This document shows positions 14,897 through 62,216 of a DNA stretch of 64,000 bases, piece after piece. Under the pieces are notes generated by a model, which saw nothing but the letters and a program-made list of their open reading frames with translations, made no database searches and was not told where the DNA came from. A program made the position numbers and the translations under genes. The DNA lies in assembly GCA_964499865.1 (NCBI GenBank), contig CAZCPY010000001.1, positions 102,238-166,237 on the forward strand, in the 5' to 3' direction. This DNA is from an uncultured Rhodobacterales bacterium. Its GTDB lineage: Bacteria; Pseudomonadota; Alphaproteobacteria; Rhodobacterales; Rhodobacteraceae. Position 1 is the stretch's first letter; each line of letters opens with the position of its first letter.

Positions 14897-15093
14897 TGTT
14901 TTATTCCTCTGCCAATTCCGTTTCCTTTGTAACCGCCATACCCGTCCCCGCACCAATCTTCGCCCATAGAACGTATACGCCCCCCACATCCATCCCCGAA
15001 CCCACGCTCATACCAACCACCAAACCAATGCCCGTTCCCGTACCCGTCTCCAACTCCATACTCGTCGCCAGTTCCGAAATTATTAATCTTCAA
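14893..15093 (-). CDS. Gly/Tyr-rich small protein, array 1 member 9 (66 aa)
   Basis: TTGA overlap with GGAGGAG upstream. Product is MKINNFGTGDEYGVGDGYGNGHWFGGWY…YKGNGIGRGIKH, 23 of 66 residues Gly by my count. Confidence 0.65.
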   Translation of the reverse strand: MKINNFGTGDEYGVGDGYGNGHWFGGWYERGFGDGCGGRIRSMGEDWCGDGYGGYKGNGIGRGIKH

Positions 15094-15206
15094 TGTCTTA
15101 CTCCTCCTTTTCCTCTTCCAGTCCAGTAGTGAGGTCCGCACCCATATCCGTACCCGTAACCATCTCCAAACCCATACCCAAACAAACTCCAATGTCCATT
15201 CCCGTA
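15032..15206. repeat. 175-nt segment identical to 38491-38665
   Basis: Base-by-base comparison of the two stretches shows no mismatch. It spans the 3' half of member 8, the junction and the 5' part of member 9. Confidence 0.9.
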
Positions 15207-24182: not shown

Positions 24183-24548
24183 ATGGATAACATCGAAAAA
24201 GGCCTACGCCAAGCCTTTCAAAAGCAGGCGACCACACAAGTTCCCTCCCTAGAACAACACTTTCTATCTCTCGTAGAGAATGAAGGTCAAGTTAAGCAGG
24301 CCGCTGGTCCTCAAATCGGACCTCTTATTCGACGCGCTAAAGCGCAGCCCGCTCGTATGGACGCTGATGTTGCACCTAGATCAGGAATCCTAGATAAGGT
24401 CAGAGGAGCTGCTGGGCACGCTGTCGAATATGCTCAACAAAATCCTGAGATTGTCGGCGGCGGGGCCGCCGCTGCATTAGGTCTCGGCGCTGGCGCGCTT
24501 ATGCTGCGCGCCCGTGCTCGGCGTCGGCGCCAAGCCCAACAAGGCTGA
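24183..24548 (+). CDS. membrane-anchored protein (paralog 1 of 3)
   Basis: The C-terminal 60 aa are identical to those of the next gene (Ala/Gly transmembrane segment plus RARARRRRQAQQG tail). Confidence 0.6.
   Translation: MDNIEKGLRQAFQKQATTQVPSLEQHFLSLVENEGQVKQAAGPQIGPLIRRAKAQPARMDADVAPRSGILDKVRGAAGHAVEYAQQNPEIVGGGAAAALGLGAGALMLRARARRRRQAQQG
24364..24544. repeat. 181-nt perfect direct repeat, copy 1
   Basis: Identical base for base to 25119-25299. Encodes the shared C-terminal anchor. Confidence 0.9.
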
Positions 24549-24556
24549 GGTAGTTA

Positions 24557-25303
24557 GTGCTCACTATGCGTACAGGATTCGCGAAGGCCGCGGGAATGAC
24601 TGGACCTGGAGGCGCGGCGGCTGAGTCGGGTGTTGCCGGCGTCACAGGCCTGGCGTCGGCAGCTCGCCGTGTATTAAGAACGCCTGAGTGGTCCCATTCT
24701 CCTCCTCCCCCTGGTTATGGTTACAAGGCCTGGCTCAGTCAAAACGACACTCACGACCATAACTTCCGTTCGGACATGGAAGCGTACGATTGGCTTACGC
24801 AAAGCCCGCTAAATTTGAGAAACCAGGCAGAAACAGCGGCTAGAATGCGAGAAAGAGTAAAACAGCATGTGGAACAGGCGCCCACGCCCGACAGAACGTC
24901 CGCAGCAACTTTAAAAACACCTGAAGTGACAGGTCGAGGTCTTGATGCCGCGCCTAGAGGCCTATCGGATCACATCCATTCTGGGCATCCGTACTTTCAC
25001 CCGAGGGCATCAACCGCTAGTCAAGCATTAACTAGGCGCAACACCAGCGATGTGGTGCTTAGGCCCAAGACTCCGACTAGCGACATACACGTGGACGTCC
25101 TTCCCCGGAACCCGGCATCTGATGTTGCACCTAGATCAGGAATCCTAGATAAGGTCAGAGGAGCTGCTGGGCACGCTGTCGAATATGCTCAACAAAATCC
25201 TGAGATTGTCGGCGGCGGGGCCGCCGCTGCATTAGGTCTCGGCGCTGGCGCGCTTATGCTGCGCGCCCGTGCTCGGCGTCGGCGCCAAGCCCAACAAGGT
25301 TGA
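24557..25303 (+). CDS. membrane-anchored protein (paralog 2 of 3)
   Basis: GTG at 24557 lies 5 nt after GAGGTAG, and the ATG at 24566 is an alternative. Shares AGVTG…A-x-RR-x-L and TLKTPE-x-TG motifs with paralog 3. Confidence 0.6.
   Translation: MLTMRTGFAKAAGMTGPGGAAAESGVAGVTGLASAARRVLRTPEWSHSPPPPGYGYKAWLSQNDTHDHNFRSDMEAYDWLTQSPLNLRNQAETAARMRERVKQHVEQAPTPDRTSAATLKTPEVTGRGLDAAPRGLSDHIHSGHPYFHPRASTASQALTRRNTSDVVLRPKTPTSDIHVDVLPRNPASDVAPRSGILDKVRGAAGHAVEYAQQNPEIVGGGAAAALGLGAGALMLRARARRRRQAQQG
25119..25299. repeat. 181-nt perfect direct repeat, copy 2
   Basis: Identical to 24364-24544. Confidence 0.9.
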
Positions 25304-25310
25304 TACACTT

Positions 25311-26087
25311 ATGTCGTCTAATTTTACGCGTCTAACTAAAGCAGCTAATGCACGTAACGCGGCGGTGGCTGGGCTAGGTGTTGCCGGCGTCACAGGCGTG
25401 GCGCTGGCATCTCGTCGTGCATTAGATAGGCACATCTACGGCTCTAGATTGAACCATAGTCCTCATAGTCCCGCACCGACTTTAAAAACGCCTGAAGCGA
25501 CCGGTGTAGACGTCATTCCCCGGAACCCGGCGTCTAGTGCGGCATTGCGGCATCATTGGGCGCAGGCGACTGGTCGTAGCGGCGCTGCACCGCCTAAATC
25601 AGGGATCCAAGGTGAATCAACGCCTGAAGCGACCGGTCGTATCGTCGATGCCACGCCTACAAGCACACCTGCTCCTAGCGTCTTTGACCACATCTCTTCT
25701 GTTGCTAAAGCGAATACTGAAAGGGCAGCTACGGGAGTCGCCAAAGCGAAAGCGCGAGTTGCTGAAGCACTTAGTGAACATAATGGTGTGGGTAGCCTCA
25801 AGGGCATTATGGATAGGTATCGAGCCGCGCCGTACGGAACCAAGCATCTGTCCCAGCCTCAAGGAAAAGGCGTGGATCTCGCGGACGCTATGAAGCCTAC
25901 GCCAGATGCAGAAAAACTTCTTAGCTCGCTACACAACAAAGGCTTGTTTGGTCACATCTCTCCTGAGCATGCAGTAGGTTACGGCGCAGCCGCCGCTGGC
26001 GCGGCCGGTTTAGCATACTACGCTAAGAAACGCTGGGATAAGTTCCAGAAAAATAGACAACTTCAAAAGCAATACGGTCTACGTTAA
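25311..26087 (+). CDS. membrane-anchored protein (paralog 3 of 3)
   Basis: Start trimmed to the ATG at 25311 (MSSNFTRL), just after the upstream stop. C-terminal Ala/Gly hydrophobic segment. Confidence 0.6.
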   Translation: MSSNFTRLTKAANARNAAVAGLGVAGVTGVALASRRALDRHIYGSRLNHSPHSPAPTLKTPEATGVDVIPRNPASSAALRHHWAQATGRSGAAPPKSGIQGESTPEATGRIVDATPTSTPAPSVFDHISSVAKANTERAATGVAKAKARVAEALSEHNGVGSLKGIMDRYRAAPYGTKHLSQPQGKGVDLADAMKPTPDAEKLLSSLHNKGLFGHISPEHAVGYGAAAAGAAGLAYYAKKRWDKFQKNRQLQKQYGLR

Positions 26088-38263: not shown

Positions 38264-38354
38264 TTTTTGTAGTTCAGTTGTTTTGAGGTGCAGAGAGTCG
38301 AACCCGACTCAAAGAAAATAGGGCTAAGTCTACTTATTTCGTGTTCTTACATTG

Positions 38355-38408: not shown

Positions 38409-38552
38409 TTAGTGTTTTATTCCCTTTCGGCGCCAGGTCCCGTCACCGTTACTCAGCTCTCCGTACCCGTTTCCTTCCACAGTCCCATAACCGTTCCCGT
38501 ACCCGTCTCCAACTCCATACTCGTCGCCAGTTCCGAAATTATTAATCTTCAA
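38409..38552 (-). CDS. Gly/Tyr-rich small protein, array 3 member 2 (47 aa)
   Basis: TTGA overlap. Product is MKINNFGTGDEYGVGDGYGNGYGTVEGNGYGELSNGDGTWRRKGIKH. Ends with TAA and has no following junction. Confidence 0.6.
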   Translation of the reverse strand: MKINNFGTGDEYGVGDGYGNGYGTVEGNGYGELSNGDGTWRRKGIKH

Positions 38553-38665
38553 TGTCTTACTCCTCCTTTTCCTCTTCCAGTCCAGTAGTGAGGTCCGCAC
38601 CCATATCCGTACCCGTAACCATCTCCAAACCCATACCCAAACAAACTCCAATGTCCATTCCCGTA
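38491..38665. repeat. 175-nt segment identical to 15032-15206
   Basis: Perfect identity read directly. Same orientation, 23,459 nt apart. Confidence 0.9.
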
Positions 38666-38728
38666 TCCACGACCATATCCGTCCCCACTTATGAATCTGT
38701 TTCCATTTCCGAAGTCGTTAATCTTCAA
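38549..38728 (-). CDS. Gly/Tyr-rich small protein, array 3 member 1 (59 aa), mosaic
   Basis: TTG is preceded by GGAAAAGGAGAAAAACA. The N-terminus MKINDFGNGNRF matches array 2 member C. The C-terminal half GNGHWSLFGYGFGDGYGYGYGCGPHYWTGRGKGGVRH matches array 1 member 8. Confidence 0.65.
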   Translation of the reverse strand: MKINDFGNGNRFISGDGYGRGYGNGHWSLFGYGFGDGYGYGYGCGPHYWTGRGKGGVRH

Positions 38729-38763
38729 TGTTTTTCTCCTTTTCCGTTCCCGTCGTGCCGCGC

Positions 38764-38778
38764 ATTTATGCAACCACA
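38764..38778 (-). promoter_or_regulatory. promoter-like motif variant (TGTGGTTGCATAAAT) upstream of array 3
   Basis: Lies about 35 nt upstream of the first array 3 start. Confidence 0.3.
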
Positions 38779-39339: not shown

Positions 39340-39566
39340 AGTAGTGGTGTTTCTAGCTCTTTCAGGATCTGGAACAGGGGAGTGTTTTTTCTAATTAGCG
39401 TTGCGAGCCGCCATTGTTGCGTCTTAATCGCTCGTTTCCGACGCGCTCTCGGTAGTTTTAAAGCGCGCAGAGTCCTTTGGATTAACGAGTACCGGCTACC
39501 AGTACCGTGTTTGGTCCGGATATCGCTAAGTAGTCTTGATTGAATGGAATTCCTTTCTTGATCCAT
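39336..39566 (-). CDS. uncertain small basic ORF
   Basis: 76-aa ORF that overlaps the 3' end of the methyltransferase gene by 85 nt. It fills the 39340-39481 gap, but the start is unclear. Confidence 0.3.
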   Translation of the reverse strand: MDQERNSIQSRLLSDIRTKHGTGSRYSLIQRTLRALKLPRARRKRAIKTQQWRLATLIRKNTPLFQILKELETPLL

Positions 39567-39979
39567 AAATTGGTTACAGACGCCACAGCGGTGTTCTGCT
39601 TATCTGGACCGCACCAAATGTTACAACATGGAACAATAACAACTGTGCGCTTTGCTGCAGCAGTTGCGATCTCGTAGGAGGCACCGTCTGGATGCATACC
39701 GACGATCAGATCGTACACCTCTGCTTGCGTATGGCAGAAACATGTCTGAATTCTAGGTAGTTCCGCGATGCTTAACTTACGTCGCAGCTGGCGTCTTTGG
39801 GCCTTAGACAAACCAGTCTTTCTCGGGTCAATGACCGTTGGTTGGTAACCTAGTTTTAGTAGTTCGAGGGATAGCTCTCCCTTTCCGCCTGCCACATCGG
39901 CGACTCGCTTGTAATGTTGCGGTGGGAATGTCCCGTGCAGAAATTCTGCGAACTTGGTAGCGCGCGCTTTGTCACCCAT
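39482..39979 (-). CDS. SAM-dependent methyltransferase (class I-like)
   Basis: Motif I-like VADVAGGKGELSLEL, an acidic-loop-like TVIDP, and DLIVGMHPD. Target unknown. Confidence 0.55.
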   Translation of the reverse strand: MGDKARATKFAEFLHGTFPPQHYKRVADVAGGKGELSLELLKLGYQPTVIDPRKTGLSKAQRRQLRRKLSIAELPRIQTCFCHTQAEVYDLIVGMHPDGASYEIATAAAKRTVVIVPCCNIWCGPDKQNTAVASVTNLWIKKGIPFNQDYLAISGPNTVLVAGTR

Positions 39980-61003: not shown

Positions 61004-61540
61004 ATGTTTTCTCTTAAACCGCTAGCGGACGCTGCTAGAAAGCAGTTAGAAAAGAACAAGGTTCAACCCTCGACAGATCCGGTCATGCAGCCGGTCCAGT
61101 CTTCTGCCATAAAGCAGATGGGATACAACCCACACCACAAACTGCTACACCTAGAATTTACTGGAGGCGGGAAATACGCCTTTAAGGGTGTCGGGCCTAG
61201 AACGTTCTATAACTTCACAAAAGCCGAGTCCAAAGGCGCCCATTTCCGACAATACATCATGGATCGGTATGATAGTGAGCGTCTAGACAAAGTTCACCTG
61301 AACGATGTAATCGCTGCAAGTCGACCGCACATCAAAGGTTCTCTATTCAAAGACAGCCGCGCCAAGAAAACCATACTACAGGTCACTAAAAAGAAGTCGC
61401 TCACCGAACTGGATCAGAAGGATCTCCGCATGGCCTTGCGGCACTTTAAAAATCTATCTAAGCCCGTAGCCAAGACTCCAGATTCAATCCAGTCAGTTTT
61501 TCTATCGCCGAATAGCGCGGCGCAGCGAAGCGCCAAATAA
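61004..61540 (+). CDS. KTSC domain-like protein
   Basis: SSAIKQMGYNPHHKLLHLEFTGGGKYAFKGVGPRTFYNFTKAESKGAHF resembles the KTSC domain. The ATG at 61004 is preferred. The 3' end overlaps the convergent gene by 83 nt. Confidence 0.5.
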   Translation: MFSLKPLADAARKQLEKNKVQPSTDPVMQPVQSSAIKQMGYNPHHKLLHLEFTGGGKYAFKGVGPRTFYNFTKAESKGAHFRQYIMDRYDSERLDKVHLNDVIAASRPHIKGSLFKDSRAKKTILQVTKKKSLTELDQKDLRMALRHFKNLSKPVAKTPDSIQSVFLSPNSAAQRSAK

Positions 61541-62216
61541 GTTTTCGACTGTGATCGTCAAAAACCGAGTCTAGTGGTTGGTAGTACCGCTCGTCGTGCC
61601 GTTCTGGGAACATCAATTCAGGGCCGCCCAAAAAGTATTGAATCCTGGCCATTTCTACGACAGTATTCTGGACGTAATCTTCCCACTTTACGAACAATAC
61701 GCGGTCGGAATCATTAACAATGGTTAAGATATGTTCGATGAACGTGTCGTACTGACATTGATGTAGTCGGTTGTGAACATCGTGCCACGGATATATTGCG
61801 TTTCGTCTCCAACGCACTTCTTGCTCTAAAATGTCCTTTATCGGCGGCTGACGTTTAGGTCCGTCTAGGTACTGATGCGTCAGTCTCGCAATAGGTTCTC
61901 GTATAACCAGGACGTATTTGGCTTTGTGAATGTATCTCTCTATTAATTGAACTGCCCACGGCCAATAGAAATAACTTTCTGACGCATCTATTGCAGGTTC
62001 TTTCTTTAATTTTCGGAACAACTTCATATACGACGCCGGCGCGATCGTAGTATGCTTTTTGTACAGCCCCGATGGAATAATTATTCCTGGGCACTTCAAA
62101 CTAAAAAAATCGAGGCCGCGCGGCCTCGGCACCTGGAAATCTCCGGTGCGCGCCAGTTCTAGCGCTATCTCTGTAGTACCACTATAGTCAGGACCGAGAA
62201 TGAATCCGAATTTCAT
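61458..62216 (-). CDS. sulfotransferase-like protein
   Basis: N-terminal FILGPDYSGTT (5'-PSB-like P-loop) and VIREPIARLTHQY (3'-PB-like R-x-P-x-x-R) at the appropriate spacing. Confidence 0.5.
   Translation of the reverse strand: MKFGFILGPDYSGTTEIALELARTGDFQVPRPRGLDFFSLKCPGIIIPSGLYKKHTTIAPASYMKLFRKLKKEPAIDASESYFYWPWAVQLIERYIHKAKYVLVIREPIARLTHQYLDGPKRQPPIKDILEQEVRWRRNAIYPWHDVHNRLHQCQYDTFIEHILTIVNDSDRVLFVKWEDYVQNTVVEMARIQYFLGGPELMFPERHDERYYQPLDSVFDDHSRKLIWRFAAPRYSAIEKLTGLNLESWLRA

Follow-up and report, generated by a model that had tools for sequence, protein, structure and literature searches.

High-glycine-tyrosine keratin-associated proteins (KAPs; PF11759) and the glycine-rich (Gly-X)n wall proteins of plants are thought to function through their composition, as matrix or cross-linking material. 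We compare them here with a family of mini-genes found in three arrays on a 64,000-nt stretch of DNA (the window) that is part of a ~190-kb tailed phage, and in particular with the smallest of these loci, array 3, at positions 38409–38778. The two eukaryotic groups resemble the phage family in the length of the proteins (~50–90 aa), in their Gly/Tyr G-X repeats and in being encoded by tandem multigene families with copy-number variation. They differ from it in being eukaryotic structural proteins, either Cys-rich (KAPs) or secreted (plant proteins). Moreover, X in the phage family is as often Asn, Arg or Asp as Tyr; the analogy with KAPs is one of composition, with no homology, and none of the seven window members scanned matched PF11759 at E ≤ 1.

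Two further systems bear on the organization of the locus. In gp38 of T-even phages, short conserved Gly-coding motifs between variable segments are the recombination sites at which the variable parts are shuffled. The arrays described here likewise exchange and delete sequence at Gly-Tyr-coding micro-homologies (GGGTACGG-type). Nevertheless, gp38 is a single adhesin, folded and placed at the tip of the tail fibre, whereas the units of the arrays are separate mini-genes, and no link between the arrays and the neighbouring 1774-aa fibre-like protein could be detected. As for translationally coupled genes (ATGA/TGATG), they share with the arrays a four-base overlap of stop and start codons and an upstream purine-rich motif, the classic layout for termination and reinitiation, but the arrays depart from this scheme in using TTG at 15 of 16 starts, in placing up to ten repeats in series and in belonging to a genome poor in Shine–Dalgarno (SD) sequences. 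Taken as a whole, array 3 is best explained, in a reading that we favour on balance without holding it firmly, as a phage-specific satellite array made by recombination, whose members would be expressed by coupled translation as peptides acting in bulk.

A family of overlapping mini-genes in three arrays

Array 3 consists of two mini-genes on the minus strand. Member 1 (38728–38549, minus strand; MKINDFGNGNRFISGDGYGRGYGNGHWSLFGYGFGDGYGYGYGCGPHYWTGRGKGGVRH) begins with TTG, stops at TGA and encodes 59 aa, and member 2 (38552–38409, minus strand; MKINNFGTGDEYGVGDGYGNGYGTVEGNGYGELSNGDGTWRRKGIKH) begins with TTG, stops at TAA and encodes 47 aa. They overlap in the sequence A-TTG-A (38553–38549, minus strand), which combines the TGA of member 1 with the TTG of member 2 in frame −1. 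Both reading frames and their TTGA junction had been reported in a preliminary description of this DNA, as had the unrelated nature of the genes on either side, and both points hold: a 140-aa gene lies upstream and genes of 29 and 74 aa lie downstream, all three coding for hypothetical proteins. The same description had member 2 ending with TAA and followed by no further junction; indeed, its last codons, AAA CAC TAA, are a decayed form of the AAA CAT TGA junction, which after member 2 reads AAACACTAA.

Both members carry the ends that define the family, MKINDFGNG...GGVRH in member 1 and MKINNFGTG...KGIKH in member 2, the family consensus being M-K-I-N-(D/N)-x-G-x-G at the N-terminus and ..G-x-G-x-K-H at the C-terminus, with a common tail form ...GNGKGxKH and a hypervariable middle. 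Member 1 is 85% identical at the protein level to member 7 of array 1 and, together with a 175-nt block of exact identity discussed below, this places the membership of array 3 in the family, as judged from sequence, far beyond chance. The family comprises 16 intact members of 47–67 codons in the window (9 + 5 + 2), as against 19 in a sister strain. Array 1 (16388–14714, minus strand) is a chain of nine members, the first starting with ATG and the others with TTG, and array 2 (23598–22662, minus strand) a chain of five members followed by a truncated stub of 16 codons (22712–22662, minus strand; MKIRAIGSRPSDRARN*). In the stub, the junction and the three N-terminal residues of a member survive, and the sister strain has the stub as well. 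All three loci thus lie on one strand, as had been noted before, arrays 2 and 1 being at distances of 14.8 kb and ~22–24 kb, respectively, from array 3.

The junctions are remarkably uniform. All internal junctions of the three arrays read A-TTG-A, and in array 3 the sequence AAACA together with GGAA(A/G)(A/G)GGA(G) precedes A-TTG-A at the start of member 1 as well as at the junction of the two members. The lengths of the units obey the geometry that a four-base overlap demands, with (length − 4) = 2 mod 3 in 16 of 16 cases. A 52-aa open reading frame (ORF; MKSIQSCINKAGYFTTKTTPNYG..., 14717–14559, minus strand), unrelated to the family, is coupled by the same A-TTG-A to the last member of array 1, and the junction design therefore extends beyond family members. 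This ORF directly precedes a MazG/PRA-PH-like gene of 170 aa.

Upstream of member 1, the purine-rich, SD-like decamer GGAAAAGGAG (38745–38736, minus strand) lies 7 nt 5′ of the TTG, with a predicted anti-SD duplex of −8.7 kcal/mol. Seven copies of it occur in the window, all of them on the minus strand and within the three arrays. The preliminary description had recognized this sequence as a leader; its presence stands, but its nature has to be reinterpreted, as the leader is supplied by the relic 3′ end of a family member (RHDGNGKGEKH*, 38760–38725, minus strand) that lacks a preceding start codon. This relic, which corresponds to a member's last 11 codons and fills the 36 nt upstream of member 1, has a homologous, diverged counterpart in the leader of array 1. 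A CATAAA-type motif had also been pointed out. It does exist (TTGCATAAATGC, 38773–38762, minus strand), but it does not behave as a signal: allowing for up to two mismatches, the window contains 4 copies against 4.7 expected, and none is found upstream of arrays 1 and 2. A promoter shared by the arrays was likewise discarded, since sigma-70-like sites do not exceed chance and the CATAAA motif does not recur.

Other features of the surroundings may be mentioned briefly. A hairpin resembling a tRNA T-arm (GAGTCGGGTTCGACTC, 38291–38306, minus strand) is located 3′ of array 3; it has no ARAGORN or Rfam match and folds no better than shuffled sequences. No tRNA or Rfam family was found anywhere in the window, and a structured RNA or tRNA at the arrays was rejected for want of any match or unusual folding. 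Two genes upstream of array 3, a 165-aa protein (39482–39979, minus strand) resembles S-adenosylmethionine (SAM)-dependent methyltransferases and gives a weak PADLOC match to mad2 of the methylation-associated defence system (E = 1e-6).

Exchange of sequence between the arrays

Array 3 is a patchwork of arrays 1 and 2. A block of 175 nt (38491–38665) is identical, without a single mismatch, to positions 15032–15206 of array 1 on the same minus strand, as would be expected of a gene-conversion or duplication tract. In array 3 the block runs from codon 21 of member 1 through the junction to codon 21 of member 2, of which it covers the first 62 nt, and its source is the junction between members 7 and 8 of array 1. 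The first ~50 nt of member 1, on the other hand, are nearly identical to member 3 of array 2 (68 of 86 compared positions, with an exact core of 21 nt), and arrays 1 and 2 themselves share a block of 51 nt. This mosaic structure points to ectopic recombination or gene conversion rather than to a single local expansion, in agreement with the mode of spread that had been proposed for the family, and the sequences support the view that array 3 was made by ectopic homologous recombination or gene conversion. The comparison shows an exchange of Gly-Tyr-coding DNA between loci 15–24 kb apart, which produced array 3 and maintains its likeness to arrays 1 and 2; unequal or micro-homology recombination also leads to the gain and loss of whole members.

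Comparison of the three loci between relatives had been suggested as a check, and could be carried out with a closely related strain. The material comprised the 189,901-bp record from which the window derives, a 189,225-bp sister contig and many fragments from three series of runs. The flanks of array 3 are ~99.9% identical in the sister contig, with six substitutions in ~9.4 kb, but copy number differs between sister and window in two of the three loci: three members versus two in array 3, eleven versus nine in array 1 and five versus five in array 2. The three members of the sister array 3 have 55, 48 and 57 aa, and member 2 of the window proves to be a fusion of the first 62 nt of sister member 2 and the last 86 nt of sister member 3, joined at a 4-nt identity (ACGG). 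In array 1, member 7 of the window is similarly a fusion of sister members 7 and 9 across 14 nt, and a 6-nt indel separates the two versions of member 2. A patch of 42 nt in member 1 of array 3 resembles member 5 of array 1 in the sister and member 7 of array 1 in the window. Array 2 has the same five members in both strains, with point changes only.

Altogether, window and sister differ inside the arrays by indels of 173, 328, 12 and 6 nt and by a patch with 11 mismatches, the exchanges and deletions having occurred at Gly-Tyr-coding micro-homologies of the GGGTACGG type. At least five structural events in ~3 kb of arrays contrast with a few substitutions across tens of kb of the remaining sequence, and no other DNA comes close to the arrays in variability between these near-identical strains.

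It could be argued that array 3 is an artefact of assembly, that is, a misplaced or collapsed copy of array 1, an eventuality already considered in the preliminary description. The exact repeat of 175 nt is longer than common k-mer sizes, short-read contigs routinely break at array 3 and often end inside it, and the two-member form was found in the 189,901-bp source record alone. In addition, one short-read contig of 6843 bp (L048; ENA ERZ1066114 NODE_449) runs straight from the start of array 3 into the final two members of array 1 and on into the genes that follow, indicating that short-read assemblers do mis-thread here. Against this, contigs of two samples run through the entire three-member locus into unique sequence on either side, and contigs of others cover part of it; the window-type sequence of member 1 is reproduced at all 136 available bases in contigs of three further, independent runs, and the sister variant of member 1 is borne out by independent contigs as well. 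Finally, the differences from the sister fall at identities of 4–14 nt, which are too short for a de Bruijn k-mer collapse. An artefact is accordingly very improbable.

The join in L048, which leaves out ~23 kb with the genes for baseplate and fibre, probably arose by mis-assembly across a shared block of ~145 nt, the alternative being a rare but real recombinant. Another contig (L058; ENA ERZ1066115 NODE_10164) carries in its last 124 nt a third variant of member 1, which combines the window-type upstream gene with the sister-type patch and has two extra substitutions (Asn to Tyr and Gly to Val); at 5x coverage, it could be either a recombinant haplotype or a low-coverage error.

Repeats and length variation are also seen elsewhere in the window. 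In the plus-strand block of structural genes, two direct repeats of 185 nt (24364–24548 and 25119–25303) are 99% identical and 755 nt apart. The sister lacks a segment of 264 nt (25698–25961), and the product of the gene concerned has 272 aa in the window and 184 aa in the sister. Besides the arrays, and unrelated to them, this is a second place at which the strains differ in structure.

Coding status and translation signals

The Gly/Tyr frame of the 16 members contains no internal stop in 963 codons, as compared with 32 and 42 stops in the other two sense frames and with 3, 28 and 23 in the antisense frames; the mean for shuffled sequences is 58. The frequency of G at the first, second and third codon positions of the members is 43, 47 and 21%, and member 1 of array 1 has an ATG exactly where the other members have TTG. 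On these sequence criteria, the ORFs of the Gly/Tyr frame are to be regarded as real coding genes.

Several other frames were considered and rejected. The antisense ORFs that start at a plus-strand ATG over each unit (MFSSS...NLQCFLPFPFP) contain stops, lack start signals and oppose the surrounding operon; the antisense frame is nearly open simply because the frame opposite, of which it is the complement, makes hardly any use of TTA, CTA and TCA (Leu/Ser) codons. The upstream-extended ORFs chosen by gene callers, rich in Trp, Arg and Val, are frame artefacts of G-rich DNA, the ATG of array 1 marking the true start. A polyprotein produced by frameshifting was also discarded, there being no slippery site at ACATTGA. 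Public gene calls on sister contigs are inconsistent, with wrong frames and upstream-extended starts, which explains in part why the family is nearly absent from protein databases.

Alternatively, selection may act on the nucleic acid rather than on the peptide, the arrays being a G-rich, C-poor and GGA-dense stretch of transcript or DNA that would serve as a sponge for protein or as a hotspot of recombination or R-loop formation, or else a selfishly expanding repeat with incidental ORFs. The coding strand of the arrays does contain 37% G and 13% C, with ~70–80 GGA per kb as against ~17 per kb for the whole strand; the choice of Gly codons is opposite to that of the rest of the genome (GGA and GGG account for 81% in the arrays and for 31% in nine large genes), the arrays are hotspots of recombination, and G-rich sequence generally disfavours stop codons. 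Yet only one of six frames is fully open, the others having 23–42 stops, or 3 in the codon-aligned antisense frame, and the strict dipeptide periodicity described below is a protein-level pattern. Every unit retains its start codon with an A-rich spacer and a purine motif ahead of it, even the three that open an array, where the motif is non-coding. Neither an Rfam match nor unusual RNA folding was found, and a G-quadruplex hotspot was set aside as there are only three canonical motifs, all of them in array 1. We consider selection for the nucleic acid as such to be quite improbable.

If the ORFs are indeed translated, one minus-strand transcript would be read as a series of peptides that are separately terminated and reinitiated; the anatomy that this requires is observed, and its use is conjectural. 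Predicted pairing with the anti-SD sequence amounts to −5.6 to −11.6 kcal/mol in 15 of the 16 members (member 3 of array 2 has −3.5), as against a median duplex of −2.1 kcal/mol for 61 other genes of the window, only 13% of which reach −6 or lower. The upstream regions of these 61 genes are G-poor and A-rich; examples of SD-less starts are found upstream of 650, 29775, 44272 and 51804 on the plus strand and of 12212, 14502, 22432 and 39339 on the minus strand. A genome so poor in SD sequences suggests a host that is SD-independent, for example a Bacteroidota-like bacterium. The purine motif is retained even before the first member of each array, within untranslated relic sequence, and it is thus probably more than a by-product of G-K-G codons. 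TTG starts, used at 15 of 16 positions in the family, are rare outside it.

Peptide properties, relatives and possible functions

The peptides consist of 32% Gly, 9% Tyr, 9% Asn and 7% Arg, with ~4–5% each of Lys, Asp, His, Trp and Ser. The tripeptide G-x-G occurs 191 times against 91 expected (z = +14.9), whereas GG (z = −10.5) and GxxG (z = −9.6) are depleted, so that the peptides are alternating (Gly-X)n chains in which X is Tyr > Asn > Arg > Asp > Ser. Gly comes directly after an aromatic residue 88 times against 48 expected (z = +7.3), and adjacent aromatic pairs are slightly depleted (z = −1.8). The peptides are hydrophilic, with a grand average of hydropathy (GRAVY) between −0.7 and −1.4, and mostly basic, with a pI of 8–10; each has 7–17 aromatic or His residues. 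Only the first ~9 and the last ~8 residues are conserved, the middle being hypervariable with indels, and paralogues are only ~40–57% identical despite their constant composition. AlphaFold, supplied with the 16-member alignment, returned a mean pLDDT of 36 and no fold, and the peptides are accordingly predicted to be disordered. Ca-binding RTX-like folds and polyglycine-II folds were rejected, as the period is 2 and not 9 or 3.

In composition (Gly, Asn, Tyr, Phe, Arg and Asp) and in the flanking of aromatic residues by Gly, the peptides recall the prion-like low-complexity domains of hnRNPA1 and FUS with their GYNGFG kinked segments. Predicted disorder (pLDDT 36) and RG/RGG-like tails (GRGRGRKH) add to the resemblance, and by analogy the peptides may self-associate. 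They also share with the sticker–spacer class both predicted disorder and regularly spaced aromatic and Arg residues in a Gly/polar background. The differences are that prion-like domains have more than 100 residues and lie within large RNA-binding proteins, whereas the phage peptides are free-standing and have 47–67 aa, and that a strict period-2 glycine pattern is atypical of them.

We propose that the peptides act in bulk, through their composition rather than their sequence. Many interchangeable peptides would be made from many gene copies, with Tyr, Arg and Trp as ‘stickers’ and Gly as ‘spacers’, and they would either self-associate or form a coat on some polymer, for instance nucleic acid or an envelope polymer. 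Action in bulk would explain how composition and periodicity are conserved while the sequence varies, why copy number is high and why recombination is tolerated. Such a composition-driven, self-associating or coating function, drawn by analogy with high-glycine-tyrosine matrix proteins and prion-like low-complexity domains, is nonetheless put forward tentatively, as a suggestion which may well turn out to be wrong. Several points tell against the proposal, beginning with its basis, namely composition, periodicity, a prediction of disorder and a pattern of evolution. A length of 47–67 aa is short for multivalent assembly. The bias towards GGA and GGG among Gly codons could reflect a constraint at the level of nucleic acid, and frame-preserving indels are weak evidence of selection because in-register recombination keeps frames automatically. 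Translation signals alien to the genome (SD-like motifs and TTG) do not guarantee efficient expression in the host. Finally, a processing enzyme could recognize the peptides by their conserved head and tail.

The last point leads to a different explanation, according to which the arrays would be a library of precursors of ribosomally synthesized, post-translationally modified peptides (RiPPs), their conserved head and tail being recognized by a modifying enzyme encoded elsewhere in the phage or by the host. The hypervariable middle would lend itself to the role of a combinatorial core. Multi-precursor loci of the prochlorosin type similarly have many small paralogues with conserved ends and a variable middle, distributed over several loci; the phage peptides are predicted to be disordered and are rich in residues of known cross-links. 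The candidate enzymes would be a radical-SAM or P450 cross-linker acting on Tyr, Trp or His, a splicease acting on X-Tyr-Gly, or a 252-aa protein of the window with a sulfotransferase domain (61458–62216, minus strand; PF00685, Sulfotransfer_1, E = 5.8e-6). Sulfation of tyrosines by the latter is conceivable in principle, but a sugar or small molecule is its more probable substrate; an esterase-like (BD-FAE) gene is located nearby. RiPP leaders typically have about 20 aa or more, whereas the conserved N-terminal part of the phage peptides has ~9, and the core that follows is of low complexity. No Pfam match to a radical SAM enzyme, YcaO, LanM, P450, peptidase or transporter, and no other maturase, was found among the called genes in the 64 kb of the window and ~10 kb on each side, nor did any NCBIfam precursor model match, including that of the Gly-rich-repeat target family (GrrA-type). 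The start signals of the gene that follows can also account for the conserved tail. A RiPP-type library is for these reasons unlikely.

Equally unlikely, in our opinion, is the idea that the peptides are diversified specific effectors, each variant with a host or competitor target of its own, for example anti-defence decoys, superinfection-exclusion factors or antimicrobial-like peptides released at lysis, for which recombination would create new specificities in an arms race. The extreme diversification and the fast turnover of copy number between strains with ~99.9% identical flanks would fit this idea, as would the position of the arrays among small accessory genes. In being cationic and in their abundance of Gly and aromatic residues, the phage peptides also resemble the glycine-rich antimicrobial peptides of eukaryotes. 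However, the variable region is a low-complexity (Gly-X)n chain and not a defined binding motif, and free exchange of patches would scramble specificities. The peptides have no signal peptide, double-glycine leader or hydrophobic segment (GRAVY ≤ −0.7), and they match nothing in PADLOC, Pfam or NCBIfam and no bacteriocin model.

No relatives of the family were found. Scans of seven members identified no Pfam family, apart from sub-threshold, low-complexity TrAA12 matches, and no NCBIfam model at E ≤ 1; PHROGs and PADLOC gave no match to the peptides. Searched with single sequences and with profiles, sets of 5.8 billion and 1.84 billion proteins yielded only the phage’s own peptides, and in all about 15 billion proteins contained no homologue. 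Neither blastn nor tblastn found one in 50,697 phage records, and the PDB, queried with a profile, returned engineered GS linkers and other stretches of low complexity only. Scans of IMG/VR, Joint Genome Institute (JGI) metagenomes and GTDB genomes for the junction pattern, with matches checked by a scan for Gly-Tyr (GY)-rich ORFs, gave single chance matches among the matches listed. No GY-rich patch was flagged outside the arrays in the window, and literature searches revealed neither a description of such phage peptides nor a paper that mentions the sample accessions.

The phage is equally isolated, with no close relative among the 50,697 deposited phage genomes, in IMG/VR or among GTDB genomes. 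Structural proteins encoded in the window include a Baseplate_J / PHROG 6 wedge protein, which has no relatives in IMG/VR or GTDB genomes, and proteins of 1774 and 2503 aa; further genes code for an SNF2 helicase, an exonuclease, ThyX, a GroES-like Cpn10 and a MazG-like protein.

Below significance (E = 0.06–10), the searches did bring up other small (Gly-Tyr)n proteins from phage-like contigs. One set is linked to PcfJ-like genes on three phage-like metagenome contigs (L205:1–1430, L206:8–1162 and L208:5914–6868). On the first contig, a PcfJ-like gene of 230 aa is surrounded by a tandem of four or more overlapping copies; the second has a different GY member after the same PcfJ-like gene, and the third a single copy before a PcfJ-like gene that is 44% identical. 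Gene callers mis-frame several of these copies as ‘MAMAMAM’ proteins. They are like the window family in their length (60–70 aa), their (G-Y/X)n core, their tandem overlapping copies that vary between related contigs and their place among small early-type genes, but they have their own head (..LKIYQGNWVDV..), an acidic tail (..NNGLETxDD) and ATG or GTG starts, and they lack the A-TTG-A junction. Conversely, the LKIYQGNWVDV-type head is absent from the window family, and tblastn detected no PcfJ-like gene in the window. An hhalign comparison of the two families matched only in the low-complexity core; on PF11759 the PcfJ-linked proteins score 20–23 bits for a cut-off of 21.1. From these sequences, the PcfJ-linked family appears to be an independent analogue, and not a homologue, of the window family. 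A possible third group of GY-repeat proteins (..PVGYGSGYG..GYGYGT.SPNR.RR) was noted in L207:6001–6144 and also in P0017, P0022 and P0026; one of its genes lies in a phage replication/recombination module, between AAA_25 primase/helicase-like and SSAP/Sak genes.

The mini-gene family is a true orphan, although as a kind, that of lineage-specific, recombining families of small low-complexity proteins, it is known in outline, and it does not amount to a demonstrably new mechanism. The existence of an analogous family elsewhere suggests that multi-copy peptides of such composition are useful to phages. It is tempting to speculate, though the idea is a long shot, that a hitherto unrecognized class of multi-copy, recombination-shuffled (Gly-Tyr/X)n effectors acting collectively through material properties (as a gel, a condensate or a coating of nucleic acid or envelope polymers) has had more than one origin among phages. 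Here they would be made by serial TTG reinitiation, and SD-type signals unlike those of the other genes would suggest that a dedicated or conditional mode of translation is at work.

If the peptides are made, they would constitute a new protein family without detectable relatives and of a design unusual for phages, in which about 16–19 interchangeable low-complexity mini-proteins, encoded with serial TTG overlaps, take the place of one folded protein. The arrays also provide a clean natural case of recombination outrunning point mutation, in strains that differ by ~0.06% elsewhere. Arrays of this kind cause short-read assemblies to break up or to join wrongly, and gene callers place them in the wrong frame; mis-assembly and mis-framing together probably explain why such families, the PcfJ-linked one included, are almost invisible in protein databases. 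Finally, the presence of SD-like signals in this family, as opposed to the SD-poor genome that surrounds it, may offer a lead on how start sites are chosen during infection.

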